Assembly: GCA_051294905.1 (NCBI GenBank)
Contig: CM119372.1
Location: forward strand, 34,040,001-34,104,000
Direction of reading: 5' to 3'
Source of the DNA: Botryllus schlosseri
Taxonomy: Eukaryota
Length of the DNA stretch: 64,000 bases
Of this stretch, positions 3,201 to 53,961 are shown one piece after another. The position numbers and the translations under genes are program-made. The number at the start of each line of letters is the position of its first letter. Position 1 is the first letter of the stretch. The notes beneath the pieces were generated by a model. It was given only the letters and a program-made list of their open reading frames with translations, had not been told where the DNA came from and did no database searches.

Positions 3201-4306
3201 TCACGACCGATCATACTAACTACTTATGATGCGGTCGTGCGGGTGTTCACGATTTTCAGCTTGCCGTTTTGATATTGTATTCATGGTAGCCTATGTGTTT
3301 GTGAGGGTGCTGAAATTGGCACTTCTCAAAGTTTAATTGGTGGGTAGCAATTTAGTAGTAGTGCTCTATATTGCTCTTTATGACAGTTTTTATAGACATT
3401 CTTGGTATTGGTAACTTCCTATTCGGTATATCATGCCGACAAGATGCTTCAATAAAATCTCTGCAGTAGTTCCTGTATCGTGACTGACTCTTAAGTCACC
3501 GGCATACATGGGTTAGTCTGTTACAGAGGAGCGGCCGAACAACTAGAGGCTGCATGGGGTTTGCAAGTGGGTCACTTGAGTGTTAATGACCTTATTTTAA
3601 TTGCATCGACAAGTGATGCCTGACATATCAAAACAGTCGTTACTCCCGCCTATACTCCACGGCCCATCTTCGTTGACGCCGAAAAAGCTAGCTGATAACT
3701 TATACTTGTTGTTTTCCTCTACAATCATGATATGAACAAGATTATTTTCCTCTACAAATATCGATATTATGAGTATCTCATCATCCTCGTTAATTTCGAG
3801 GATAAGAAACGTTTCAGAGTACGACCAAACACACATTGTCGTTGTACCTTTGCCCACCAATCTTACTAAGAATATATATTTGTAAGGGGTAAAACGACAC
3901 CGGGTCGTCCACGATACAGCTTCCTGAAGGATCATGTAAACAGGGCCCTTTAACGAGTCAGCTTGGAGATGAGACGTGACGTCACTGGAGACGACTTGAA
4001 CGCCAAGTCGAGTCGAACATGTAACCAGGCCTTATGAAATCGTCAAAGTATGCATTGCCACAATCCTATAGTATAGGGTTGCCATACGTCCGGAATTTTC
4101 CGGACATGTCCGGAATTTCACAGAAAAATCTGCGTCCGGGAGGAATTTCAAAAATATGCCTAAATGTCCGGAATTTTGAAGGCTTGAAGCAAGCTCAAAA
4201 GTTTTTTGTAAATCAACATAAACAATATTATTTTCAAGCAGATTTATGCTATTCAAAATTGTTCTTCGCGCCGCGCGCGAGTTAACGCAACGTATGATGA
4301 TATTAC

Positions 4307-4890
4307 TATAGATAACTAACCTACGGATAGATACGCAACAGTCGTCGTCACGCTCTCTTGCCCGGAGGAAATTAGTGCTCAGCAATCTGGACGCAGCATA
4401 ATTGCTAATCCCATAGCTGACTACCTGAGCGCTCAAATTAAATAGAGTTGATCTTATTTGAAAGCTACTGTCGCGTTGATTCTGAAAATATACATTAAAA
4501 GTTCATTAAGGCAATGGAACCAGCTCGAAATAGCTTACAAAGTCTGAAAATCGGCATTGTTGCTAACAATGGCAGAGACGCAGCACAATGACCATAACAA
4601 TGGGCCTTGCATGTTGCATGGTTGCGATTGTTTACAACAATGCAGATTTTCAGACTTTGAGGTGAATTTTGAGTGGGTTCCGCTGCCCTGATCAGATTTT
4701 AATGTATATTTTCGAAATCAGTGCGACAGTAGCTTTCAAATAAGATCAACTTTATTCAATTTGAGCGCTGAGGTCATCAACTATGGGATTAGCAATTATG
4801 CTGCGTTCAGATTGCTGAGCAGTAGTTTCCTCCGGGCAAGCAAGCGTGACGACGGGTGTTGCGTGTCTATCGGTAGGTTAGTTATCTATA
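4307..4890. mobile_element. Almost fully palindromic foldback MITE with probable 7-bp TSD (P/Galileo-like)
   Basis: TATAGATAACTAACC... and ...GGTTAGTTATCTATA arms are inverted along most of the length. Flanks are ATATTAC and ATATTAG (7 bp, one mismatch). A partial copy lies at about 6560-6660. Confidence 0.85.
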
Positions 4891-5527
4891 ATATTAGTAT
4901 ATGGACACCAGGCACCACCCTCTCCAAAAATGCAATCAAAAGTAATATAAATAACCATCATATACTGAAATAAGTTTGAGTGTAATCGCAATTATAAGCT
5001 AACGGAATATTCCTAGAGTTGGTTATAGGCCGATTGGAAGCTTCAATCACAGACAGTGCTTCCAAATCTTGGGGTCGTTCGCCTTTTTCTTGGGATCGCG
5101 ATTATGTTGGACGCAATCAGCTCCCTAGGCCGTGAGTAAGTTTGGGCAAGGTGATTTTTTTGGTAATCAGCTCATCAAGTTTTGACCTTTGCCACGAAAC
5201 ATTTTCAAGTGGGAAAAGAGGTCGCGACCATAAAGGTTGGAAATCACCGGATGTGCAACCTGCTGGTGCATTTTTTAGTAGCCTAATATATGGAAGAATT
5301 AATATTATTGACAGAATTCACACATAAAATTTAACAGCCAAATGTATATAGTATAAGTGCCCAAGTTACATCGACTACCCTATGGTGGGCTCAAGATCAG
5401 TGCCTTTTTGGGCGGAAGGGGGGAGAAAAAAAGGTTTTTTCGAACCTGATTAAAACACATATACAGATAGCCCACCGACCTATCAGTATAGCAGGGCTGT
5501 CAAACACAATCCTGACAGGCCAGACAC

Positions 5528-5979
5528 TAGGCTTACCATACGTCCTCTTTTAAGAGGATTTGTCCTCTTTTTTGACTTTTTTGAAAGTGTCCTCGGAGGA
5601 CGCCCTTTTGTCCTCTTTTTTGAGATTTTGTCCTCTTTTTTAGGATTTAGAGCAGATTTAGAGCAAATTGCGAGTGATATGCCACATATTAGCACGGACG
5701 TGAAGCTCCGACGGGTGAAAAACGGTGATTTTAGCTCTGAGCGAAAAGATGACCTTTTTTTTTTTTTTTTTTTATAGTCATCCATCTGGCGATGTGGAGT
5801 AAAAAACGTTATTTTGAGATCTGAGCGGAAAAGATGACCTTTATTTTTTTCTTTTTTTAGTTAACCAGTCACAAAGTGGGAAAAATTAACCGGTTTTTGA
5901 GAATTCTACTCCGATTTTGAAAGTTGGAAATTTATGAAAAAGTGTCCTCTTTTTAGATTTCCAAAATATGGTAAGCCTA
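5528..5979. mobile_element. hAT-type MITE inserted in a CAGGG(G/C)TGTCAAAC-family fragment
   Basis: TIRs TAGGCTTACCAT / ATGGTAAGCCTA; exact 8-bp TSD CCAGACAC at 5520-5527 and 5980-5987; GTCCTCTTTT subrepeats. Confidence 0.92.
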
Positions 5980-7290
5980 CCAGACACGGCCCACCAGATG
6001 ATTTCATCCCGCCCGTGGAGGAATCTATTGCAGACCCTAGCAAGTAGCAATCACCAGAGCTCATATTAAAGGTGACCCAATTCATGACCTATGTTCCACT
6101 CCATTCCCGTATCGTGTATACAGTCAATGGGCAATGCTTTGCTAGTGTGACGTCATATTGACGGTCAATGAGTTACACCTCATTTTAAAATCCGCTAGTG
6201 GGCGCTAAAGAGTGTCCGGAATTTGCTTTACAAAAACATGGTAACCCTACTATAGTATAGTATACAACAATCGTCGCTTAGTCCGAAAAGTTGTCAAAAA
6301 CCCATGCATTTGGACACAGCACGCTGATACGTACTTGCCACCATTCATGTTCATCCTAGACTAAAGCTGCAACTACATACTAGCTTTACGCTATTTATTA
6401 CTATTCATTAAGACCAGTCATCCCCAATTCAACGTAATTTTGCTTAAATCCTTCATTTTTCAACCTTTTTCCATAAGAGCTCATAGTAAGCTTGCCCGGC
6501 CTTGTTCTTTGTTTACATCCTGCTGCAACCTGATTGGTTCGTGTCAAAGGTCACGTAAGTGTCTATTATGTTGCGTTCAGATTGCTGAGCAGTAATTACC
6601 TCCGGGCAAGTAAGCGTAACAACGGGTGTTGCGTATCTATCCGTAGGTTAGTTATCTATAATTTACCCGAGCTTGGCGCCCCCTTTCAAATGCTTTCACG
6701 CCTGACAATGGGGGCACGCCCCCAAGTGTGAGAACCACTGGTTTAGCCTATATTGTAATTCGCTGCGTTTTCTGTTTCTACTGAAGTATGGGAAACAGTT
6801 TAGCATGGCTGAATTATCTAGTTAATGAGGCACGCATAGAATACCGATGTGAACAGGCTAATTATTTTATGTTGTGAGATTGTCAATGTAATTGAAATTG
6901 TAATTAGGCAAAATTTTCATCAAATTACAATTACATTGCGATGTAATGAAAAAAAGGACGGTGCCGAAGCGACTTGGAGTTAGGGTTGTGTTTGAAACAA
7001 AAATCAATTTAAAGCAGACATGTTTAAAACAAGGCCCTTGTTTAAAACATGTTTTTAATGTTTTTTTCCTAAGGCATGACGTCACGCATATTCAATTGTG
7101 ACGTCATAGTGGATTGATATTGACAATTGAAAATATAGGATAAATATATGGCTCCTTTAACGAAATAGGCTTCCAACCCCTGTAACATACGGACCAAAAA
7201 TATCTTTAACCAGGATTACATCGTCTTGCAGCATTTTTACGGTCGGTGGGCATCATCAGAACATTCATTCCGTACCAATGTTCTATATCT

Positions 7291-8190
7291 CAATGTTGGG
7301 ATCAAGTCACTACCTTCGAGTCACGAGTCATCTCGAGTCATTGCAGATTTTGACTCGAGTCAAGTCAAGTCAATCGATTTTCAAAGGTGACTCGAGTCAA
7401 GTCAAGTCACAATTCAAGTCAAATAGAATTTTCGATGTATGAGTGATGATTCAAAGTCATTACACTTTGCTAGCTGTGTGAAAGACAGATTAATTGATCA
7501 ATGATGATCATTTATCTTGAATCAAATAACGAATATCTAGTTAAATATACATGCGAAAAGACGTTGTATCACTCGCGCACACGTAGAACTGTTAATAAAA
7601 TACGTGAGTAACTGTACAGTCACATGCTACAGTCAGTTATTATCAGCCAAAATATAGGACCTAATCTACATCTACGTATCCGTGAGTGAATAAACGCACA
7701 AACTATATTTGTTTGATTTAAATCATACATAAAGGTTGGTAAAGGTGAGCACTGCGCAACGTAAGCATTGATCCGACTAAGAAACAGAGACACATTGTTA
7801 TTTAGAGTAATCTTCTACTACAACTACTACTACGACAACGTAAGCTGTGATTGTTTAGTTTGCGGTCTATTTATTTGTGATCTAACAATCGAGGATCAGT
7901 GTATCGTACGATCAGTGAATGACTGGTTACACTCACAAGTGACACCGGCGTATCTCGAACAATCCGAACATACACAAGATACAGTGATTTATTCGACACC
8001 GTTTACTTGATGACTTGAAATTGACTCGTAAATTTCGCTCCGAGTCACGAGTCAATGCGCATTCTTGAAGCTTCGAGTCAAGTCAAGTCAAGTCATTTTT
8101 CCAAAGTGACTCGAGTCAAGTCAAGTCATACGAAAAAGTTGACTCGAGTCTGACTCGAGTCAAGTCATGACTCGAGTCATCCCAACACTG
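7291..8190. mobile_element. hAT-type MITE with GACTCGAGTCAAGTC subterminal repeats
   Basis: TIRs CAATGTTGGGAT / ATCCCAACACTG; exact 8-bp TSD CTATATCT at 7283-7290 and 8191-8198. Confidence 0.93.
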
Positions 8191-8291
8191 CTATATCTAC
8201 GTACTATAGCTGTTGAACCGACTGTTTCGAGGGTTCCAACGATCCCATATTGTATACGTCGACTATATCGGGTCGTAATCGTCGACCGTAA

Positions 8292-9395
8292 TTGGCTTAC
8301 CATATTTCAGCAACCCAAATTCCGGACACTCTTTAGCGCCCACTAGTGGATTTAAAAATGAGTTATGACGTCACACTAGCAAAGATTTGCTCATACACCA
8401 GAGGTATGGTCACGATCCGGTTCAGGAGTATGTGGCTGTGTGTTGTGTAACCGGGACCGAAACCACATGTTTTCTGCCCCTTCCCGCCCAAATAAACAAT
8501 GATTTTGAGCCCACATTATAAGGTTATCGATGCAACTTATGGGTGGGGGTCTTGCTGTATGAATATGGTTTCTATATGCATCTGGTCGTTAAATTATTTG
8601 AATGAATTCTGTGTATAATATTGATCGTTCAATATATTACTACTACTCTCCGCCCACATGATCAGAGTTAGCGGTAGAGCTGGTCATGAAGTATGATGAG
8701 TTCGATAATACAGGGAGCGTAATTGCATATCGTTAAGTCACGTTCATGTCCTACCGATAAGATTGTTTATCAGCCTTATGCCGGTGCGCACCACGGAGCT
8801 TTATAAACACCCCACATTCAGTGGTTTCCAACCTTTTATGGTCGCGACTCCACCTCCAATTTGAAAATGTGCCGTAGCACGGATCAAAATTAGACGAGCT
8901 GATTACTAAAATAAGTCAGCACCATTGCCCAGACTGACTCATGGGCTATTGTGGAAGCTGATTACGTTCAACATATTCGCAAATCCCAGAATAAAGGCAA
9001 GCGTCCCCCCGTTTTGAACCACCATCTTTGAATAAAGCATTTACACGGCCTTAACGATCTCTAGGAATATAATGTTCTCCTATAATTGCGATTGCAATTA
9101 GGCTTATTCCAGTAAATGAATATTTTTATATTTTATGGCAGTTTTCGCGAGGGTGGTAGTCTCCATATTGAAATCAATAAATAAGATAATAAATCGCGCG
9201 CAGCGCGAAGAAAAATATCATGCATCAGCATAAATATTCCCAAAACATATTGTTTTTATGCTGATTCACGAATAAATTATGAGCCTACGTCAAAATTCCG
9301 GACATTTGGCATATTATAGAAATTCCTCCCGGACGCTAGTTTCAACAGTGAAATTCCGGACATGTCCGGGAAATTCCGGACGTATGGCAACCCTA
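8292..9395 (-). mobile_element. Second, inverted copy of hAT family A, lacking the nested insertions
   Basis: 8292-8360 is the reverse complement of 6180-6249, and 9290-9395 of 4074-4180. Internal blocks also match 4900-5420 in inverted orientation. The TSD is only partly retained (CCGTA). Confidence 0.85.
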
Positions 9396-12842: not shown

Positions 12843-13904
12843 ATCCATAGCCCATCTTAGTACCAGCCGGCTGCAGTGTCGTTGTTTTACTCCAGTTGCC
12901 ATTAGGAAGAAGTCGGTGTCATCGTAACCCGATTTCGAGAAGGCAATAAGTCTACTAAGTTCAGAGTTTTATGGAAAATTATACCCAAAACACAGTTATT
13001 CACAGAAGCGAAAACGCCAATGCGAAGCCGCTATATGCAGTTTATATGTAAAAATATATTGATTTATACAACCATATAATCCAAATATCTGTGGTTGCAC
13101 TGCGGTGACACTTTCGGCTTAAAAGGTGCCACTGCCCAGCCTCCAGTCAAATCCGAATCGAGATTTAAGATTTATTATGAACCAAATTCCAACGTCTGCG
13201 TTTACTGTTCAATCTCTTGTATTCCTCACCCATCTTGCGCAGGGCTGACTCCAGATTACGACTAAAGGAGACGAAGCATAGATATATGCCAACTTATATC
13301 GTCGTTAGCGCCAGTGTTTTGGCGGTTTATATCCGTATTCAACCGGCCAATCATGGTATTTTTGCCAATTTCATGGTCCGCGAATAAAATGTTGCTGCTT
13401 GTTAGAATAAAACCCCTATGATCCGTGGTACAACGTAAAATACTATTATGTCTATATACTTGATAACAAAGTGAAAAAATAGAGAATCAGGTAACATTTT
13501 CGAATTAGTTGACTGGTGCGGCCCGCGAGTGATTTGAAGGCTCGTATCTGGCCCGCGACGCAATTTGAATTTGACACCCCTGGTTTAAAGGATTGATAGA
13601 TGTTAACCGGTACTGACGAAATTGCATTTAATCGCGACATTTCGATTCATCTGGTGTGATGCACAGATTTGAAGCAATATTTCGTTGTCATAACAATCAT
13701 TTGGAAATAAAAATTCTTGAGAACGAATGGTATAGCAATACGAATCACCGGTTTGACCCGAGTACATCGCTACACCTACTCGCACCTTGGCGAGTTGACC
13801 TTAATTGAGCCATGTTAACCAATGATCCGAAAGATGTAAATTTGTGAGTGTCATCTAGGGCATGACGTACTCTAAGTAGGTCTATATATACAAGAGCAAA
13901 TAAG

Positions 13905-16024: not shown

Positions 16025-16978
16025 CAGGGGTGTCAAACAAACGGCCCGCGGGCCGCCAGACGATTTCATCCGGCCCACGAAGCAATTCTGATTAGATTGA
16101 AAACTGCTTATGTTTTCCAGCACATTTTTAACTAATGTTGAGATCTTATTTAAGGAAATACTTCCATTTAAATAATCCCAAAAGGCAGCGAATGCCGACA
16201 ATGGTAATTGTTCAAGGTTACATTTTAACCACCCCGACTGCAGGTTTGTGGTTTCACTCTAGACTTACCACTTGGAACAATTCGGTGACTTTGATACTCG
16301 ATTTCGAGAAGGCAAAAACGAGCAGACTGACATCAGACTTTTATGGAAAAACGGACCGAAATGCAGTTATTCGCAGAAGCGAAATCGCCAATGCGGAATC
16401 GTTTTTTTGCAGTTTACATGGATAATATATTACTTATATACAAAAATACATTTTAGATATCCGTGTCGTTACTGCTATGTTACTTCTGACTCAAAATGTT
16501 CCCTGACTCCAGATAAACCAGAATCGCGATTTAGAAAAAATGAAACAAATTCGAACGTCCGCGTTTGCGGTTAAATCTCTTGTGGTCCTCACAATGCATG
16601 GGCAGGGCTAACACCTGAAAGAATAGGGAGCATTGAAATATACCATCTTATATTGTAATTAGCGCCACTATTTTAGCCATTCATAACTGTATTCAGCCGG
16701 CTAGTCATCGGATTTTGGTCAATTTCATAATTCGCGAATATAGGTGTTGCTACTTGCTACAGTAAAAAAAACCTGTGATCCATGACATAGTAAAAAAAAA
16801 ACTGTGATTCATGACACAATGTGATATAGGCTACTATTATCTTTATCAAATATTGAAGTATTCGAGTGAAAAGCAATGACATGAGGTAACAATTTTTGAA
16901 TCAGTTGATTGGTCCGGCCGGCAAGCGATTTGAAGGTTTGAATCCGGCCCGCGACGCATTTTGAGTTTGCCACACCTG
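16025..16978 (+). mobile_element. Uninterrupted family B hAT-type MITE (also at about 37331-38283 and 59049-60001)
   Basis: TIRs CAGGGGTGTCAAAC / GTTTGCCACACCTG; exact 8-bp TSD ATTTACGA at 16017-16024 and 16979-16986. Confidence 0.92.
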
Positions 16979-19894: not shown

Positions 19895-20011
19895 TTTCTT
19901 GGTCAAACTCTGCAGTTATTGCTACCCTTTACAATGAAAATAGAAGATCCGTATTCACCATCTTTAGCCCAGAAATGATGTGAACTGCGCTGCCGTGGTT
20001 AACCGTTGAGC

Positions 20012-22984
20012 CATAGTGTCCTATATGGTGTCGACACAAGCAAATCGCACGGTTCAATGAAATTGTATCACGTCACAGTTTCCATTTGGCTACAGGCAAT
20101 TTGACGGTGATTTTTGCCCGACTTGCCGAGCATTAAATTTGATGAAGCGGGTATCAATCGAAAGCTGACGCTGTACTGCTTGCGAAAATATAAATTTCAT
20201 TCCACTCATGGCCCTGGAACCCCCACAATCTGCCCCAAATTATTCATTGTCTAGTAGATTGGCAGTGTGACGCAACAATGATGTCTGGCGAAACGAGAGA
20301 CTAGCTCAAGAGCAAGGATGCGGCCGAGCGGCGAGAGTGGGATCAGCTGACGTCGCGGCAATAGCAATGTGCAACCGCGCCACAGAGAAACGCTGCGCTG
20401 TTGATACTTTTTCTATGCGTTCCGGTACAAGCGAGCACACACCAGCCTTTCCTTGACTTGTAAGGGTAGAACTGGGTCCACGGAATGTATTAGGGCCCTA
20501 CCAATTTTCGCGCAATATCCTTCAGCTGATAGAGATATGTAGTCTACATTGGATATGTCAGATTATTATGATATCGATTGCCTTAGCCCGCTTGTTGCGT
20601 AAGGCTCCAGAGCAGACTTGGACAACTAGATAATTCTAGTTGTCTAATTTCACTAAATTAGGGCGAAATGCCAGTAATCTAATTCTAATCTAATTTGTGA
20701 AATGTTTCCATGCTCTAATTCTAATTCTAATCTAATTTGTGAAATGTTCTTATGCTCTAATTCTAATTCTAATCTAATTTGTGAAATGTCCCTATTCTCT
20801 AATTCTAGCTCTAATCTAATTATTGTTTTAATGAAAATGCTTCTTTGTCCGAGGCATATTGCACTTTTGCGCAGGGAAATCCAGTGCCAAGCCGCCATCG
20901 CCTTACTTACACCGTGCAGTCATAGTAGATATTATGACGAATAATAGCCTGCTAGAGTAGCTTGTAGTCTGCGAACAAAATTCTAGTTTTTAAAACTTTA
21001 CGTTAGTACATCGCCGTTCTGACTAACATGGGCGATGTCCATGGTTATTATGAAGAAGTAATATTGTATTGGTGTACAGAAGTTAATGGGAATGCACTGA
21101 TGTTGTTGTTGTTGTTTATTGAACAAAAATATGTGGCGCTTATCGCGTGACGGCCTTTTGCACCACGCACTGTGATTTGATATGAACTGGATTTTGCTGT
21201 GTTCATTTCCCATATACAATTTCATTCAATTTCCAATTTTTTGCGAACTAAGTAGCTCTAATTCTAATTCTAATCTAATTTGGAAAAAACTTAGTAGCTC
21301 TAATTCTAATTCTAATCTAATTTGGAAAAAGCTGTGGAGCTCTAATTCTAATTCTAATCTAATTTGGAAAAACTGTGTAACTCTAATTCTAATTCTAGTC
21401 TAATTTGAAAAAAACTATGGAGCTCTAATTCTAATTCTAATCTAATTCAGAAAAGCTGAAAATTTTCTAGTTGTCCAAGTCTGCTCCAGAGATGCGTGGC
21501 GCTGTTGATACTTTTTCTACGCGCTTCGCTAAAAGCGAGCACACACCAGCCTTTCCTTGACTTGTAATGGTCAACTGGGTCCACAGAATGTATTTGGTCC
21601 CTACCAATTTTCGCGCAATCCTTCAGCTGTTAGAGATATTTCTAGTAAGAAAAATATACTTTCAAGTAATAAGATTCACTCAAGACAGCAAATTTAGATA
21701 ATGTAAATATATCATATTGTAGTAATACAACTACAGTGTTGAGTTTTCACTCTAGTCCCCATAAGCACCACGTCGGTGACCTTGCCAAATTCCGAGAAGG
21801 CGAAAAAGTGCAAACTCTGTTGGGCCGAATGGACAATGGACATTCAGTTATTCACAGATGCGAAAAAAATACTGCAAATCCGTTTTAGGTAAGTTACATT
21901 AGGAATATATATACAGACTACAGAATGAGTATAATTCAAATATCTGTGATACCACTGTATTACTTTTGACGCAAAATATCCCCGGCATTCAAAAAAACTA
22001 TTTGGTGATTGAAAAATGCTAATCCAAATTCCAACGTCAACGTTTATAGTGATATCAGATATATTCCAATGAAAAACAAAGGTATGAATTTGGTGCTAAC
22101 ATTTTGGAATCATTTGGCAGGTATGGCCCGCAAGCTTTCTAGTAACGGATTGAATCCGGACAGCGATTCCAGTTTAATTCGACACTCCTGCTGTTAAACT
22201 TTATTCAACAATCAACATTTTACCTGCTGCATTCGCGGACCAAGTCCTACCCATACGGATCAAATAAAAGCTTGTAATGTATGCTCATGCTCAATGCTCC
22301 TTGCTCACACTTAACCATAAAAGCGACTATAGAAAGTATCTACACCCGCCATCAACAGCGCGACGTGTCTCTGGAGCCCTACGCAACAAGCGGGCTAAGG
22401 CAACCGATATCATAATAATCTGACATATCCAATGTAGACTACTTAGACGTAGCCTACATATCTTTATCAGCTGAAGGATATTGCGCGAAAATTGGTAGGG
22501 CCCTAATACATTCTGTGGACCCAGTTCTACCCTTACAAGTCAAGGAAAGGCTGGTGTGTGCTCGCTTGTACCGAAACGCATAGAAAAAGTATCAAAAGCG
22601 CAGCGTTTCTTTGTGGCGCGTTTGCACATCGCTATTGCCGCGACGTCAGCTGATCCCACTCTCGCCGCTCGGCCGCATCCTTGCTCTTGAGCTAGTCTCT
22701 CGTTTCGCCAGACCGCATTGTTGCGTCACACTGCCAATCTACTCGACAATGAATAATTGGGGGCTGATGGTGGGGGTTCCAGGGCCGCGAGCGGAATAAA
22801 ATTTATATTTTCGTAATCAGTGCAGAGTCAGCTTTCGATTGATATCCGATTCATCAAATTTAATGCTCGGCAAGCCGGTCAAAAATCACCGTCAAATTGC
22901 CTGTAGCCAAATGGAAACTGTGACGTGATACAATTTCATTGAACCGTGCGATTTGCTTGTGTCGACACCATATAGGACACTATG
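20012..22984. mobile_element. Foldback element with ~600-bp TIRs and 7-bp TSD (Galileo/P-superfamily-like), non-autonomous
   Basis: Termini CATAGTGTCCTATATGG / CCATATAGGACACTATG; arms about 20012-20612 versus 22367-22984. The TSD GTTGAAC is exact on both sides in copy 2 (GTTGAGC/GTTGAAC in copy 1). Confidence 0.88.
20613..21483. mobile_element. hAT-type MITE with CTCTAATTCTAATTCTAATCTAATTT arrays, inserted in the foldback left arm
   Basis: TIRs CAGACTTGGACAACTAGA / TCTAGTTGTCCAAGTCTG; exact 8-bp TSD CTCCAGAG at 20605-20612 and 21484-21491. Confidence 0.93.
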
Positions 22985-24444
22985 GTTGAACACAATGATT
23001 TATCATTGATTCATGAACATGACCACGACCATGCACCATTGGTGCGGGTGAAACGTTCATGTGGAGTCGATTTGAGCGTTCAATTGCAACTTTCTAACCC
23101 TGTATAGTCCCACCGTTCTCTCAATTTTACATGTGTTACATAAACTATAAGGAAAGACGACACGAAAACCCTACAGATGTCGTTAATACGTGATAGAATG
23201 CATAAATTTGATAATCAGGTTAAATCTCTCTAACAAAATGGCGAAACGCATGAGCAAGTACATTGTATACATTGTACAATCAATGAAGAGACGTAATCGA
23301 AGCCTAACATCCGCAAGCGTCTGGTGAGCCGCAGTTTGCCCATCCCTGAGCTATAGCAATCATTAAAGTCGCATTTCTTTTAAAGGATACTGGACATTTA
23401 CAATCAAGTTTGTGCTGTTCAACTTAGGGATACCATATGTCCTTAGCCGGACTTCGCGAGCTTCGTTAGCAGAAACTTCTATAGAATGATGTATGCCTTA
23501 TAAATATCTGATTTTAAAGGGCAGCGTTAAATAAAGTTTTAAATATTACATTTGAGTTGCGTGCATTTGTTGTAATTAGATTTAGAGTTTGGGGCCCTAG
23601 GGGACGCGTAACACGGTTTGGAAAACCTTGTTCAACACCATTGTCTTTAGTACAACATTAAAATAACGGGGCGCCCAAACAAGAATAGTCCTAGGGCAGT
23701 GGTTCCCAAGTGAGGGGGGGGGGAATTCCCCCCTTGGGGGAATTTTGAAATTTTTAGGGGGGAATCTGGTTTAAATTTCTTAGGGGAAATCTGACTATGG
23801 CATTGTATTGGAAGATGCACTGGGTTCGCAAGGTTTTCAGAATTTTATGGTGTAGAACTGTTAAGTAGAAATTAGTTCTTTGCAATTGTATGTTTCTTTG
23901 GCGGATTTCAAGCTAGGTGTATATTTAAAAGCCTTCCGTAGATATTACACCCCCTGATAAAGTCGAGGCTCACGAGGCGATTTCGTTGTGTCAGCGACAG
24001 CCTCTCGACCAAATTGTTACTAGGCAGGAAAACGTCGAGCCGAATTCAGCACAAGGCCGCTAGTGAAATTGTTTAACTTTTTAAACCAACATATGAGCTA
24101 ACGGGAAAAACATACCGTACCAAATTCATCGATTCAACTCAAGTCCATAGCAAGCGGACTTGTTGATTTATTTTTCGTCAGCGGCTACCCGACCGGGCAC
24201 ACACAGGTCAAATTTGACTGTACTGACTGACTGGGGGTAGGGGGGGGGGGGGGTGCATGTAAAAGAGTATACGACACACTGATCATGTTTGTGTTCTGCT
24301 TTGCAAATCAGTTCGATTGATACTCTATTCTAATCGAAAGTAGCGGAAACGTTGATCACTAGTTGGGCCAGTTGTAGATGTACTAATGTTCTCGTTCATA
24401 ATAGATAAAACCCAATTTTCTTGGTGACTCGTATTGCGGAAACG

Positions 24445-26933: not shown

Positions 26934-28220
26934 CAGAGGTGGTCAAAGTAGTCAAGAAAGCTACTCAAGTAGAAGTAGAAGTAGCGACGAAAAAATCTAC
27001 TCAAGTACGAGTAGAAGTACTTCTTCCATAAGCCACCTAAAACTACTTGAAGGAAAGCTAGAATTGACTGACGTTAAATTTACTCAAGTAAGTAAGTGGT
27101 TTTGAAAACAGTCTCAATTCGTTCGCACGGACTGTCAAATGCTGCAAATTGAGCTATGCGGAAGATGCAGAGAGATTGATTCGTATTGATGCATCCCAGG
27201 AGGTATCAATTTGCGACAGAAGAAGCATTCTTTAGCATCATGGGATGCAAATGATAGTAATGATATGAAAATGCGATATTAACCTTGTTTACTAAGAGAC
27301 ACCATTTTAGAGAATATCATGGCATGGCGCCCTACATCATGTTATAAGGCCCCAAGTTTAGGCGAAGAGCAATACGTAGAAGTTGCATCGGATACGGTTT
27401 CAACATTTTGCGAGATTGGTATACAAATATTGTATGCAAATTAGTATACAAATATTGTGGATCGTAAAATTTATATTTAGTGTAGCTTTATTTTCGGAAA
27501 ATAGAGGCATTACTACACTTGCTTTTATGCTTCAACATGTATATTCTGCAGACAAAAGAACTGAAAGTAATTAGAACTCAAAGTATGATACTCTGAGTAT
27601 CATACTCGGAACTGCAATTGAAATACAAATACTTCAAACACTTCTAAAAAGCGGAAAATATATTTCATGTCTTTTGTTCATAAAGCTTCAAAGGTAGGTA
27701 ATCTGCTAAAAAAGGCGTAGCGTTCCAAACAGCCAGAATTTCCAGATTAACAGGACACGTCATGGGCTGCTAGATAACGATAGGTAATTGCTAAATTGCG
27801 AAACGGTGGTTTCAAACGCCATATTTACTGTGATGAAATATTTGATATGGGTGACGATGCAGTATGAGCGGAACCATAAGCAATCTGGTACCTAAATTAT
27901 ATTCATATATTTGGCATTCCATATACTGTGCGCGAAGCGCAATAATATTTCTGGGCTTTACTTTACTTTTTTAATATTAAATGGTGGCCCTCCGTGAAAC
28001 CAGCCCCGAAATTCCTCAGGCTATCTTTCGTATTGGGGGGTTAAACTACTTCTACTTGACAAACTGAAAATAGCGAAAAGTAAGTAAGTAGATCACAAAA
28101 TATTACGAAGTAGTAATAGAAGTAGAGAAAATCATATCTACTTGAGTAAGTAGCAGAAGTAGAGGAAAACTACTTCAGTACTTCCAAAAAGTAGAAGTGC
28201 ATCGTTACTGACCACCTCTG
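26934..28220. mobile_element. hAT-type MITE with AGTAGAAGTA subrepeats
   Basis: TIRs CAGAGGTGGTCA / TGACCACCTCTG; TSD GTTATAGG / ATTATAGG. Confidence 0.9.
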
Positions 28221-30893
28221 ATTATAGGCTACATGATGAAGAAAAGGATTAATTCAATTGTCCGAATTTTTCGCTGCCGATGGTGAAGATTAATTTTACG
28301 GAATGACAGTTTTAAAGTTGCAACCCTCTTACGGGCCGTGGTAATCTTTATTATTTATCTTGAGCTAATATGTTCACACCACACGTTAAGACTATCCATG
28401 AGTTTTCGAACGGTGAGCATCGGGCGGGCCACTAGTAATTACTTACTTAGTTAAAGCATGCTGTTTTGTCGCGACTTCCGGAAAATGTTGTCGCCACTCA
28501 AAAGTTATCTCACGCGTACCACAACTCAATAAAAAATTGGTAAGATACGCACGGTTCCCAATTTGCATTTATTCACAGCGCGCAAAATTTATTCCTCTGC
28601 TTCTTAGCATTTGTACCGTGGGACTCAGATTGCAATTAATGAGCCATCCCGCGCGATCTTAGGACAAGGTTCTAACGCCGGCGATATTTCTGGGATCGCA
28701 CTTCGTGTTGGCTAAGACATACCTGCCTTGGTGTGTCTTTTTAGCGCCGTAAAGCTGATACCTAATAGTCCCGCAACCGCTGGCAGCACACGCATATAAT
28801 TAGATTCAATTCTGAATATCGTGCGTTTCTTTATTCAGGCCTATTTTTTGATTTTTTGATTTATCAAGAGGCGGGCACGCTATAATTAACATACCACTGA
28901 AACCATATATCGCGCAAAGCGCGATGAAAAATTTCAAGTCGGATACATATGGTCAATAATAATAAACCTATATTAAGTTTTGAAAAATGTTCAAAAATTA
29001 TTGGGAGCACGGCCCCATTCTCCCAGTCCTGGCGACGCCAGTGCTATTGTATATATACATAGGCCTATGTATTAATACCGCTAACAGACTGTTTTGCGAT
29101 ATTAAAGAAAGCTCGGTGGATTTACATGCGTGCTCAATACTTGCAGGAGATTGTAAGACACTAGTACATGTAGTGTTTTGAGGCAGAAACTGTATAATAT
29201 CAACTGCAAATACATATAATTACACATTATTGAAATGATAATAACGCAACCCCTTCATAAGAAAACAAAAATCACAATTCGAGCTCATAACATTATGTCG
29301 CTTCGGTACGTCGATTATACTTCCTTCTAGATATACATAGCTAATCGGAGATAATCAGATAAGCATAAAACAGGAATACTAGCGACATACAATAATATAC
29401 TAAATATGATCCAGAGACGGGTCAATACAATCATCGAGATTTTTGGTTTCTGATGGGAAAAAATGTTAGCGAATGACTTGTTGAACGTGACAACTCCCTA
29501 TGTATGGGATCTGGTAGTCTATAAGGACGATTATACACTGCTTACGCCTCTATACCGACAACAGCTCACCATCGCTTCTGAAATCAATAATGGTGACAAT
29601 ATCAGAACTTATTGCCAATGAGTTTACATCCCTGTCGGTATACATGCCAAGGCGATCACACGAAGACGAAGACGGTCATTAAATCTGTTTGTTTGTTTGA
29701 GGTATTCATTGTGTTTGTCGACTACTTTGTACATTTACACCACGCCAATTTTCTTCATTTTTATTCCGTAGCTGCCGACTTGTAGCACTGCCCACTTCCA
29801 GGCTTTTCATAAGACACCGCTTACGCGGATAAGATGGCGAGGATGAGCCTGGATAAACCTCCAACACTTAGGTAATTTAATCTCTATTCGCAGTCGACTA
29901 GTCACGAAACATCTTAGGGTTCACGATTATAATAATTATTAATTGTAATCACTGGTTTGCCTGGAAAATAAGGATCACTTCGTGGAATAATTTTGAATTT
30001 CCTGAAGAGTTCAACCCAAGCATTGCTCACCGAGGACTGACCGGTATAGCTGCGGTACCGGCGGATAGAATATAATACTAATCTGTGTGCTGCGTAGGCC
30101 TGCGGAACGCGCATCCCCCAAACTGAAAAGAGAGTGGCCTCTCACTGTCTTCGAGCTTCAGATCCATATTTTAGTCAGTCTGACGTGGAATGCATAGTGC
30201 GGACGCTATACAAAATGGTAAATGGTAAGCGAGTAACAAATTGTGCGAATCCCTGGTTTAGTTAAATGCCTTGAATGAGCTACATAACACTACAAAAAAT
30301 GTAACAGTGAAATGCGACATGCAAGGTAGACGGGAGGCTCGATATGACATAGTCTTCAGAGCCGAGCCACCCGGGACAGGAGCAATTTTCACAGTCGATA
30401 ACTAATGAAAATCGATGTTTATGTGAGTAACGTAAACTAGCGATAGTCTACACTACATACGCATTTGGGCTTTGGGCTTTCCCAAGACGATATAGCTCTT
30501 CAAAATAACTTGGCGTATTCGTAGCCATTACTGCGACGAGCTGATGTGGATCAGGTGGGAATGAACTGGTATTAAGTATATTTGACTTGTGGTCATCAAC
30601 GTTTCGGGATGCGTGCTAAGGTAGGCCTACCCAATAAAATGGTTCTACCCGTCAGTCACTCGAGAAGGTTATCGAATATTTGCACCGAAGGTCTTTGTCC
30701 ACTAAGCGTCAGTAAATAGTTTTTCGTTTTATGGCGGTAATTTTAATATGAAACTGTCGCTCTTTTCCGAAATGTAGCCTACATGGTTATCCCAAATCGA
30801 GAAAATCAATGCTTATTGACTGCACAACAAAACGGTATGTGGAACTTGACCTCAAGCTGTCGACAGGGCTGTTGAAATGAAGGCAATTGTTGA

Positions 30894-32242
30894 CTATTGG
30901 CGGGTGCTGTAATGCGCCCAAAAAGTGAAGCCACTTGACACCACTGTTAACCCGGATAGCATGTGCAGCTGGATCGATACGCATGCAAGATCTGTCAAGA
31001 TATAAACGATCATTGTACCACAGGCCAAACCAAAAGTTTGCACGACGTAAGCTGAATTGTGATCAATAAAATAGGTACCGGAAATCATATAGGCCTACAC
31101 AGTCACTCTACGTAAAGCGTGCGTCGCACCCATCAGGATAGCCAGAACGGTCCGTGGACATATTGTGCGACCTAATTGACGGTTGCCAAATGGCAGCCAC
31201 TGAATATCCAGATGCTTCCACCACCAAACTCAGTATCAGTAGAAATGGCATCGGTGTGTAATTTCCGAGTGCGGTTACCGATGAACAGACAAGGAATGAA
31301 GTATATACGTGACGAACAAAACCTTATCTAAATGATCAACACCGAGCACACACGAGCCATAAGCGCGTGACATGTCCGACCAAATGAAACCAGCAATGAA
31401 GCCTTGCTGCAATAGGGCTGGAATGGTCAGCAAACCTGGCTTTGAAACCACGTGACGAATCAAACGTTAAAATTAATTTTTACAATCTACCATCAATTCC
31501 GTGAGATACCCCAAATTTCTATTTTCGCTTGACACGGCATACCATTGAACCAATATATACCCAGTACTTGAACTCCGCAACATAAGCACAGGTACATACG
31601 TATAGAAATTAACGTCGGTACCAATTGTCTACTAGAATCAGTCGCAAACGCGTAATCAGACGGGCAATCGTTTGCTGCGCGTTTTGTCAAGTCACGAGTC
31701 GAGTCTGAGAAATTGGTGAAGTCATCAGTGATTTCCCTTTTTAAGAACAAGTCAGGCACAAGGCTGAAGATAGCTTGACCCAGCCCCAGAATGGCGACGA
31801 ATATTCCGACAGCCGCTTCAGTACCGACTTGTTTGTCACTTGGCTGCGTCGACTGCGATATTGATGAGATTATGACTCCGAGTGCGGGCATTATTAGGCC
31901 CCCGCCGACACCCAGCAGCATGCCTGCGGGCGTTACAGTCCAAAATCGAGGGTAGCCTATAGCAACGCTAGAGTAAATAACAACGAAGGAACTTGGCCTA
32001 AATGTAAGCACGCTTTCTTCCCCAAAATACTAATCATTGGTACGTAAATCACCAGTGTCACAATGCAGAGAGCTTCGTAAACCACTACACTAATCGATCC
32101 CAGTTCCCAGTGCGCCCTTCACTCCAATGCTTCACTGTAAGGCAGTATGATTGTACTGCAGGCCAGCAACCATTGCAAAGCCAATTGAAACTTCATAAAT
32201 GCGTAGTTTAGCGGACACTGCTCTTCGCCCCAAATCCACCAT
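30894..32242 (-). pseudogene. Intronless UNC-93-like (UNC93A-type MFS membrane protein) pseudogene, copy 1
   Basis: Colinear UNC-93 motifs across several frames: VSIGFAMV..LQ*SIGVKGALGT; ILGKKACLHLG..F..LL/YPRFWTVTPAGMLLGVGGG; AANDCP; LLTIPALLQQGFIAGFIWSDMSRAYGSCVLGV; AIWQP; LACVSIQLHML. Multiple stops and frameshifts are present. Confidence 0.85.
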
Positions 32243-50200: not shown

Positions 50201-51949
50201 CACGCTATAATTAACATACCACTGAAACCATATATCGCGCAAAGCGCGATGAAAAATTTCAAGTCGGATACATATGGTCAATAATAATAAACCTATATTA
50301 AGTTTTGAAAAATGTTCAAAAATTATTGGGAGCACGGCCCCATTCTCCCAGTCCTGGCGACGCCAGTGCTATTGTATATATACATAGGCCTATGTATTAA
50401 TACCGCTAACAGACTGTTTTGCGATATTAAAGAAAGCTCGGTGGATTTACATGCGTGCTCAATACTTGCAGGAGATTGTAAGACACTAGTACATGTAGTG
50501 TTTTGAGGCAGAAACTGTATAATATCAACTGCAAATACATATAATTACACATTATTGAAATGATAATAACGCAACCCCTTCATAAGAAAACAAAAATCAC
50601 AATTCGAGCTCATAACATTATGTCGCTTCGGTACGTCGATTATACTTCCTTCTAGATATACATAGCTAATCGGAGATAATCAGATAAGCATAAAACAGGA
50701 ATACTAGCGACATACAATAATATACTAAATATGATCCAGAGACGGGTCAATACAATCATCGAGATTTTTGGTTTCTGATGGGAAAAAATGTTAGCGAATG
50801 ACTTGTTGAACGTGACAACTCCCTATGTATGGGATCTGGTAGTCTATAAGGACGATTATACACTGCTTACGCCTCTATACCGACAACAGCTCACCATCGC
50901 TTCTGAAATCAATAATGGTGACAATATCAGAACTTATTGCCAATGAGTTTACATCCCTGTCGGTATACATGCCAAGGCGATCACACGAAGACGAAGACGG
51001 TCATTAAATCTGTTTGTTTGTTTGAGGTATTCATTGTGTTTGTCGACTACTTTGTACATTTACACCACGCCAATTTTCTTCATTTTTATTCCGTAGCTGC
51101 CGACTTGTAGCACTGCCCACTTCCAGGCTTTTCATAAGACACCGCTTACGCGGATAAGATGGCGAGGATGAGCCTGGATAAACCTCCAACACTTAGGTAA
51201 TTAAATCTCTATTCGCAGTCGACTAGTCACGAAACATCTTAGGGTTCACGATTATAATAATTATTAATTGTAATCACTGGTTTGCCTGGAAAATAAGGAT
51301 CACTTCGTGGAATAATTTTGAATTTCCTGAAGAGTTCAACCCAAGCATTGCTCACCGAGGACTGACCGGTATAGCTGCGGTACCGGCGGATAGAATATAA
51401 TACTAATCTGTGTGCTGCGTAGGCCTGCGGAACGCGCATCCCCCAAACTGAAAAGAGAGTGGCCTCTCACTGTCTTCGAGCTTCAGATCCATATTTTAGT
51501 CAGTCTGACGTGGAATGCATAGTGCGGACGCTATACAAAATGGTAAATGGTAAGCGAGTAACAAATTGTGCGAATCCCTGGTTTAGTTAAATGCCTTGAA
51601 TGAGCTTGAACTCGCCCGGCAGCTACTTTCCACCATAACGTTGTAGCAAACTACAATGAATTGGCGAAGTATAAATGAAAATTAATTTCAAGGTCAGTGG
51701 CCATATCGATGTTCATTACTCACCCTCAAGCGGAATGCTTCGGATCCGTGTTCAGACAGCACAATCGAAAACAGAATTCCCATTTGATCAGGAATCCTAA
51801 CTGGATTGGATCCGGATCTTCAATAACACGACCCTTGCTTGTGTAATTATAATTGAGTCACCGCGGTACGCCCGCGAAGCAATTTCAGGTTATGCTCGAC
51901 TAATTCATAATTATTCACTTCGTTGCACGCATCTAGCCGTTGAAATATC

Positions 51950-51973
51950 GAGAGAGAGAGAGAGAGAGAGAGA
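51950..51973. repeat. (GA)12 microsatellite next to a minus-strand AATAAA (51977-51982); absent from unit 1
   Basis: Read directly in the 394-bp segment 51607-52000. Confidence 0.9.
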
Positions 51974-52612
51974 ATCTTTATTCGTATACATTACATATCA
52001 ACATAACACTACAAAAAATGTAACAGTGAAATGCGACATGCAAGGTAGACGGGAGGCTCGATATGACATAGTCTTCAGAGCCGAGCCACCCAGGACAGGA
52101 GCAATTTTCACAGTCGATAACTAATGAAAATCGATGTTTATGTGAGTAACGTAAACTAGCGATAGTCTACACTACATACGCATTTGGGCTTTGGGCTTTC
52201 CCAAGACGATATAGCTCTTCAAAATAACTTGGCGTATTCGTAGCCATTACTGCGACGAGCTGATGTGGATCAGGTGGGAATGAACTGGTATTAAGTATAT
52301 TTGACTTGTGGTCATCAACGTTTCGGGATGCGTGCTAAGGTAGGCCTACCCAATAAAATGGTTCTACCCGTCAGTCACTCGAGAAGGTTATCGAATATTT
52401 GCACCGAAGGTCTTTGTCCACTAAGCGTCAGTAAATAGTTTTTCGTTTTATGGCGGTAATTTTAATATGAAACTGTCGCTCTTTTCCGAAATGTAGCCTA
52501 CATGGTTATCCCAAATCGAGAAAATCAATGCTTATTGACTGCACAACAAAACGGTATGTGAAACTTGACCTCAAGCTGTCGACAGGGCTGTTGAAATGAA
52601 GGCAATTGTTGA

Positions 52613-53961
52613 CTATTGGCGGGTGCTGTAATGCGCCCAAAAAGTGAAGCCACTTGACACCACTGTTAACCCGGATAGCATGTGCAGCTGGATCGATACG
52701 CATGCAAGATCTGTCAAGATATAAACGATCATTGTACCACAGGCCAAACCAAAAGTTTGCACGACGTAAGCTGAATTGTGATCAATAAAATAGGTACCGG
52801 AAATCATATAGGCCTACACAGTCACTCTACGTAAAGCGTGCGTCGCACCCATCAGGATAGCCAGAACGGTCCGTGGACATATTGTGCGACCTAATTGACG
52901 GTTGCCAAATGGCAGCCACTGAATATCCAGATGCTTCCACCACCAAACTCAGTATCAGTAGAAATGGCATCGGTGTGTAATTTCCGAGTGCGGTTACCGA
53001 TGAACAGACAAGGAATGAAGTATATACGTGACGAACAAAACCTTATCTAAATGATCAACACCGAGCACACACGAGCCATAAGCGCGTGACATGTCCGACC
53101 AAATGAAACCAGCAATGAAGCCTTGCTGCAATAGGGCTGGAATGGTCAGCAAACCTGGCTTTGAAACCACGTGACGAATCAAACGTTAAAATTAATTTTT
53201 ACAATCTACCATCAATTCCGTGAGATACCCCAAATTTCTATTTTCGCTTGACACGGCATACCATTGAACCAATATATACCCAGTACTTGAACTCCGCAAC
53301 ATAAGCACAGGTACATACGTATAGAAATTAACGTCGGTACCAATTGTCTACTAGAATCAGTCGCAAACGCGTAATCAGACGGGCAATCGTTTGCTGCGCG
53401 TTTTGTCAAGTCACGAGTCGAGTCTGAGAAATTGGTGAAGTCATCAGTGATTTCCCTTTTTAAGAACAAGTCAGGCACAAGGCTGAAGATAGCTTGACCC
53501 AGCCCCAGAATGGCGACGAATATTCCGACAGCCGCTTCAGTACCGACTTGTTTGTCACTTGGCTGCGTCGACTGCGATATTGATGAGATTATGACTCCGA
53601 GTGCGGGCATTATTAGGCCCCCGCCGACACCCAGCAGCATGCCTGCGGGCGTTACAGTCCAAAATCGAGGGTAGCCTATAGCAACGCTAGAGTAAATAAC
53701 AACGAAGGAACTTGGCCTAAATGTAAGCACGCTTTCTTCCCCAAAATACTAATAATTGGTACGTAAATCAGCAGTGTCACAATGCAGAGAGCTTCGTAAA
53801 CCACTACACTAATCGATCCCAGTTCCCAGTGCGCCCTTCACTCCAATGCTTCACTGTAAGGCAGTAAGATTGTACTGCAGGCCAGCAACCATTGCAAAGC
53901 CAATTGAAACTTCATAAATGCGTAGTTTAGCGGACATTGCTCTTCGCCCCAAATCCACCAT
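52613..53961 (-). pseudogene. UNC-93-like pseudogene, copy 2
   Basis: Same fragments and the same lesions at offset 21719. Confidence 0.85.

Follow-up and report, generated by a model that had tools for sequence, protein, structure and literature searches.

Scars left by the excision of cut-and-paste transposons are textbook knowledge, and what is known of them usually comes from laboratory work with one named element. In the available part of one account (PMC6943129), excision of Tc1/mariner elements leaves 3′ overhangs at the donor site, and end-joining then yields TA, two to four terminal bases and a second TA; the Sleeping Beauty footprint given there consists of TA, three terminal bases and TA, that is, TACAGTA or TACTGTA. 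The accessible text of a study of Caenorhabditis elegans Tc1 (10.1101/2025.10.09.681459) describes two-base remnants, with TATGTA/TACATA found in 78% of somatic excisions. Stereotyped scars are nevertheless not the rule everywhere, since 8 of 94 excisions in rice were clean according to the accessible sections of PMC4423477. Other groups are distinguished by their target duplications. Excerpts of the relevant papers give, for the PHIS group (ISL2EU, PIF/Harbinger, Spy, Pangu and Nuwa), AT, TWA, none, ANT, and CWG or TNA, with AT assigned to ISL2EU, TWA to PIF/Harbinger and ANT to Pangu (PMC4482050); Zator duplicates 3 bp and IS3EU 6 bp (PMC10045372), Kolobok TTAA (PMC9587614) and Sailor TATA (PMC8533490).

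The window analysed here, a stretch of 64,000 nucleotides from Botryllus schlosseri, is eukaryotic, repeat-rich, about 40% GC and almost devoid of long reading frames. It contains a gene copy with two short insertions of the form TA-GGC(C)-TA, and we conclude that both are probably scars of a TA-targeting cut-and-paste transposon with presumed GGC...GCC ends. The geometry of such scars is already known; the words TAGGCTA and TAGGCCTA are undescribed as scars in the available portions of the literature searched, in which GGGTTGCCA was likewise not found in this role (Repbase and Dfam lay outside the search, so that a described GGC family could have been missed). Nor is a TA-duplicating, GGC-ended family named in the available parts of this literature, which included PMC4455052, PMC9179366, PMC4122938 and PMC2289394. 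The present analysis adds a comparison with intact proteins, empty sites from other organisms, the target preference, an account of both scar lengths from a single overhang and the exclusion of the hAT look-alike.

An UNC-93-like pseudogene

The longest reading frame of the region (31493-32029, minus strand) led to one intact relative, P0001, a protein of 433 residues, from which a further search gave P0002 and 431 more distant representatives. Frameshift-aware alignment to P0001 delineates an intronless UNC-93-like/MFS pseudogene, copy 1, at 30894-32218 on the minus strand; the two are colinear, with 430 of the 433 residues covered, 67% identity and no introns. In a Pfam scan of 21 relatives, 11 lay above the UNC-93 cut-off (PF05978), P0004, P0005, P0008 and P0009 among them, and several matched MFS_1 (PF07690). 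By transitive homology the host gene is therefore UNC-93-like, as the earlier note had proposed. Its likeness to the UNC-93/MFS family is that of a divergent branch whose relatives pass the Pfam cut-offs; it differs in being a pseudogene, and neither its nearest intact relatives, P0001 and P0002, nor the window reading frame has a Pfam UNC-93 or MFS match. A scan of the metagenome collection with alignment A1 gave no relative.

What had been called a gene is heavily decayed. Its reading frame is interrupted by nine disabling lesions, namely five frameshifts, three nonsense codons and a 6-bp insertion carrying a stop, so that seven remain besides the two insertions of interest and removal of both would not restore function. 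Eight indels separate copy 1 from P0001 (+7, +5, +6 in frame, −2 residues, +2, −1, +4 and +6 with a stop), and the TA-GGC(C)-TA motifs account for two of the eight and for two of the six that are disabling. The same alignment places the others that shift the frame, all on the minus strand: a +7 tandem duplication, visible as a repeat and lacking the motif, at 32104-32110; a +2 duplication of AT/TA at 31557-31558, which may have arisen by slippage or by an excision that left the duplicated TA alone; a −1 frameshift near 31303; and a +4 frameshift, again lacking the motif, at 31152-31155.

A second copy of the pseudogene (52613-53937, minus strand; motifs at 52809-52816 and 53672-53678) lies in the next tandem unit and differs from copy 1 at 10 aligned positions over 2.8 kb. 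Because copy 2 carries the same set of lesions, the gene was already dead before the tandem duplication, and both scars, being present in both copies, also predate it. The pseudogene is long dead, and given its state of decay, the scars may postdate the death of the gene. At position 32218 (C on the plus strand) the start of copy 1 reads GTG, with ATG in copy 2 and in three runs. For the host gene alone the outcome is ordinary, a dead transporter-like copy.

The two insertions

The motifs lie where the earlier note had placed them, and both mark insertions. At site 1 (31953-31959, minus strand; TAGCCTA on the plus strand), the minus strand reads TTG CTA TAGGC TAC CCT. Intact P0001 has IALLYPRFW here, with no additional residue, and intact P0002 has SMMYPRFW. 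Alignment to either protein gives exactly 5 extra nucleotides between Leu84 and Tyr85, as the note had foreseen, and the insertion, at the TA of Tyr85, shifts the frame. By inspection of the sequence, the insertion can be placed equally well only as TAGGC, AGGCT or GGCTA; the change is thus TA to TAGGCTA, and on this reading its placement is unambiguous. When 5 random nucleotides were inserted in simulation, the 7-mer was produced in a fraction of 0.00025 of 400,000 trials.

Site 2 (31090-31097, minus strand) reads GTG TAGGCC TAT, an in-frame 6-bp insertion that would introduce a TAG stop before Tyr369. Relative to both P0001 and P0002 there are exactly 6 extra nucleotides within 31090-31100, so that the predicted length held; the aligner, on the other hand, favours GTGTAG (31095-31100) over the TAGGCC placement. 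This alternative preserves Ala368 of P0001 and opens the way to a different history, compatible with the main explanation, in which site 1 is a scar and at site 2 an ordinary insertion of 6 bp fell beside a native Ala-Tyr (GCC TAT) and created the word by chance. Such a history requires that the Ala codon was GCC and that the inserted bases ended in TAG; the scar reading requires only Ala to Val, a replacement seen at 3 of the 32 aligned Ala positions of P0001. Simulated insertion of 6 random nucleotides produced an overlap with one or other of the three words in a fraction of 0.0027 of trials, so that the matches exceed chance expectation at both sites. We regard an ordinary insertion at site 2 as unlikely, the scar being by rough estimate some five to ten times as probable there, and the TAGGCCTA placement as likely but not proven.

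An assembly error as the source of the insertions was rejected, since independent runs carry both. A contig of run X4 covers 30384-32192, including both sites, with no gaps, and X8 bridges site 2 with no gaps; the X8 piece over site 1 was left out of the count, as it extends for just 8 letters to one side. X6 covers both sites with two gaps, whose positions are not listed, and the stretch 30713-31374 is uncovered in run X17, from organism B. Among the 12 indels listed, none represented an allele lacking either insertion (the table, mostly of repeats, has 203 more entries).

Word enrichment and target preference in the window

A tandem array of units of 21.3-21.7 kb, 99.5-99.8% identical, runs from 11778 to 64000. 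Window statistics were consequently restricted to the non-redundant positions 1-33083 (33,083 bp), as the array repeats the remainder. The second unit is longer by an extra segment of ~395 bp, which lies at about 51607-52000 and has a GA microsatellite at its end. No Rfam matches were found in 1-34000.

In these 33,083 bp, TAGGCTA/TAGCCTA occurs 11 times against 2.4 expected (P 4e-5), which places it at the head of the 32 TA-nnn-TA words. For TAGGCCTA the count is 4 against 0.2 expected, the third rank among 136; both words that outrank it are probably units of the CTAATT- and GTAATC-type repeats of the window. By comparison, TAGGTA/TACCTA is not enriched (13 against 12.3 expected), nor is the Sleeping Beauty word TACAGTA/TACTGTA, with one occurrence in the window against about 4-5 expected. 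Third among the TA-nnn-TA words is TAGTCTA/TAGACTA, with 8 occurrences against 3.6 expected, possibly a centre-base variant of the scar word. The sites also share a context: 13 of 15 have R-TA-Y, compared with 28% of all TA in the window (P 3e-6), and with the word oriented as TAGGCTA, the following base is C at 10 of 11 window sites against a background of 21%. A density of 15 sites per 33 kb predicts about 0.6 per 1.3-kb gene. The two in the pseudogene are close to this background, so that it does not appear to have been singled out; they are probably neutral hits at roughly intergenic density, many or all of which followed the death of the gene.

Seventeen motif sites were checked for a paralogue within the window. 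Fourteen had none, and one gave a self-match as a palindrome. Where TAGGCTA stands at 16827-16833 (plus strand), the paralogous copy of the repeat (12867-13587) has a gap of 5 bp, in an alignment that is only 65-70% identical. Left out of the count were site 5279, where the alignment is ambiguous, and site 22450, which falls within a compound 15-bp insertion. The latter concerns inverted copies at 22369-22991 and 20005-20612, 93% identical, in which the 15-bp insertion has TAGGCTA beside TAGTCTA. Three comparisons between tandem units of the window gave 6, 2 and 5 indels, none of them with the motif. Inside a repeat at 24113-24119 is TACCGTA, possibly a CCG-type scar; in three runs the 5 bp are missing from a minority of the contigs of this family.

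The words in metagenome loci

A pattern of three motifs retrieved 122 metagenome loci, out of about 770 such stretches estimated overall; L038 was dropped because it overlaps L037, and none of the remaining 121 has a BLASTN match to the window. Scans of viral contigs gave no matches. Several loci have eukaryotic marks, including retrotransposon, B-box, chitin-binding and Tc1 domains, and L009, L050 and L059, with bacterial-type genes, are probably chance matches. Because TAGG-rich satellite arrays inflated the unmasked locus counts and many indel rows, masked counts are used instead. Masking of motif arrays and seed matches leaves 436 kb, in which TAGGCTA/TAGCCTA is found 160 times against 43 and TAGGCCTA 106 times against 5, each first in its class, an enrichment that is biased upward even after masking because the loci were chosen for three motifs close together. 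TAGGCCTA stands in R..Y context in 116 of 212 strand-counts, compared with a background of 22%, while the bias towards a following C is absent (41 of 160).

Pairs of related loci provide filled and empty sites. In L045/L019 (98% identical over 1083 bp) and in L017/L094 (87%), TA on one side corresponds cleanly to TAGGCCTA on the other, and in L074/L036 (80%) TA corresponds to TAGCCTA. Comparable pairs show TA to TACATGTA (L001/L047) and TA to TAGTCTA; the pair L069/L036 was left out of the count, its empty side having no clean TA. In a stricter masked survey, which does not include the L074 site, scar words were carried by 2 of 12 six-bp indels and by none of 9 five-bp indels.

Some loci, among them L006, L021, L034, L037, L061, L064, L067 and L073, contain cryptic satellite arrays of ~1 kb made of TAGGT, TAGGC and TAGCC words. 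These are 65-78% alike, lie inside a repeated element and may represent either an accumulation of scars or a simple repeat of unrelated origin. At 423-648 of L007 is a small element of the form TA-CCGG...CCGG-TA, and in the masked loci TACCGGTA shows enrichment (14 against 2.1); together they are possibly a parallel case with a visible source.

Probable origin of the TA-GGC(C)-TA words

The element proposed here would insert at TA, preferably in R-TA-Y, with duplication of the TA. By analogy with Sleeping Beauty, excision would cut the non-transferred strand three nucleotides inside each end, leaving a 3′-GGC overhang on both flanks. Pairing over three bases with a central G:G mismatch would give TA-GGC-TA or TA-GCC-TA, a gain of 5 bp, and pairing of the terminal GC alone followed by fill-in would give TA-GGCC-TA (TAGGCCTA), a gain of 6 bp; as the terminal GC is self-complementary, one GGC overhang would account for both lengths. 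CAG overhangs would be incapable of two-base pairing with fill-in, which would account for the lack of a +6 form in Sleeping Beauty. Four points of this model are matters of observation: the lengths of the insertions, the duplicated TA, the enrichment of the words and the preference for particular targets. A symmetric G:G mismatch does not predict the following-C bias at 10 of 11 window sites.

The elements that the earlier note had pictured as a source, TA-duplicating with GGC...GCC ends, were not found in the 33 kb of non-redundant window or in about 0.5 Mb of loci, and no family sharing TA|GG ends with different flanks was found in either. Eight window reading frames gave no Pfam match at E<=0.001, and the 56 reading frames of the loci yielded one DDE_3 remnant, in L007, with a CAC-type end. 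That no source was found in window and loci would be expected if a transposon-independent process, such as a repair polymerase or a template switch building a short palindrome, inserted bases at TA and repeatedly wrote the same word. The words are palindromic or nearly so, the bases at site 2 might have been copied imperfectly and in inverted orientation from the adjacent CCTATA, and the excision model does not account for the strand bias of the following C. Templated insertions should, however, vary with their flanks, and at site 1, L045/L019 and L017/L094 the empty site offers no template for GGC(C). A fixed word with an R-TA-Y preference would better fit a transposase, and we consider a transposon-independent origin rather unlikely.

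The same excision logic could also operate with 2-nucleotide overhangs from a GG...CC-ended element whose third base is free: retention of both overhangs would give TAGGCCTA and loss of one base TAGGCTA, so that both lengths are again accounted for. The two-base remnants of C. elegans Tc1, as reported in the accessible text of 10.1101/2025.10.09.681459, and the TA to TACATGTA pair are in keeping with such overhangs. Against them, the dominant product to be expected, TAGGTA/TACCTA, is no more frequent in the window than chance predicts (13 against 12.3) and falls outside the top five words in the masked loci, which favours a 3-nucleotide GGC over a 2-nucleotide GG overhang; moreover, neither window nor loci yielded a GG-ended TA-duplicating family. 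We judge 2-nucleotide overhangs to be improbable.

Positions 4074-9395 of the window hold a nest of TAGG...CCTA elements of hAT type, which we take to be Blackjack-like, together with long inverted repeats. The element at 5528-5979 (no strand assigned) ends in TAGGC...GCCTA and so mimics a TA-flanked GGC element of the very form that the earlier note had proposed to look for. It differs in that the TA lies inside the element end: outside the TA is an 8-bp duplication, CCAGACAC, and a second element (4074-6249) likewise has an 8-bp duplication. As these direct repeats flank both elements, the TA is part of hAT-type ends, and 5528-5979 was rejected as the source of the scars. The duplications of both elements are perfect, and 8292-9395 is the mirror arm of 4074-6249. 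A high-copy element ending in CAGAGGTGG lies at 26934-28220 with a near-perfect 8-bp duplication (7/8); it cuts through TAGGCTA at 28225, so that this scar is likely to be older than the insertion. The bases left behind by hAT excision are derived from the flank, not from the element end. That the scar words are collapsed ends or excision products of these resident elements is very improbable, their presence in the window and the TAGGC...GCCTA ends of one of them notwithstanding, and is largely refuted already by the net gains, as remains of elements with 8-bp duplications (CCAGACAC; CTATAGTA) should add at least 8 bp, and at the scar sites 5 or 6 bp are gained and TA alone is repeated. Also rejected were elements with TAG...CTA ends of their own, from which a gain of at least 7 bp would be expected, and, by reasoning, the addition of telomere repeats, which is unable to yield a palindromic 8-mer.

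Significance and comparison with known systems

The scar word is dense, being the top TA-nnn-TA word in the window and appearing in other organisms as clean insertions that resemble polymorphisms. We suggest only tentatively that a widespread, unrecognised lineage of GGC-ended, TA-targeting elements, or a machinery that writes a fixed word, has stamped TAGGCTA/TAGGCCTA in several unrelated animal groups. If it has, it would be a major unmodelled source of short insertions in them, one sufficient to account for a third of all disabling indels where a gene decays as this one has. Were the source found, the word would provide a genome-wide count of past excisions together with their target preference, and would put a name to a recurrent class of indels that is a pitfall both for motif discovery and for the use of indels as phylogenetic characters.

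Among described systems, the PHIS group and Zator, Kolobok, Sailor and IS3EU are set apart by their duplications, since what is repeated at the scar sites is the 2-bp TA, and not a PHIS target, 3 bp, TTAA, TATA or 6 bp. The TA duplication of Tc1/mariner elements is found at site 1 and in L045/L019, L017/L094 and L074/L036, and the 3 and 4 bases between the TAs fall within their range of 2-4. The footprint reading of the earlier note thus stands as regards the geometry of TA, remnant and TA, which recurs in the clean filled and empty pairs; its attribution to a Tc1/mariner source does not follow. Scar behaviour of Tc1/mariner type is well supported, and membership of that group is not established. 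C. elegans Tc1, as far as the accessible text describes it (10.1101/2025.10.09.681459), resembles the present case in leaving TA, an end remnant and TA, and differs in its two-base remnant and gain of 4 bp, the matching TAGGTA class not being enriched here. Sleeping Beauty is distinguished by its CAG/CTG remnant, where the words described here have GGC/GCC and are accompanied by a palindromic +6 form. In the available part of PMC6943129 it nonetheless shares with them a duplicated TA, three terminal bases between the two copies, the occurrence of both orientations and a gain of 5 bp.
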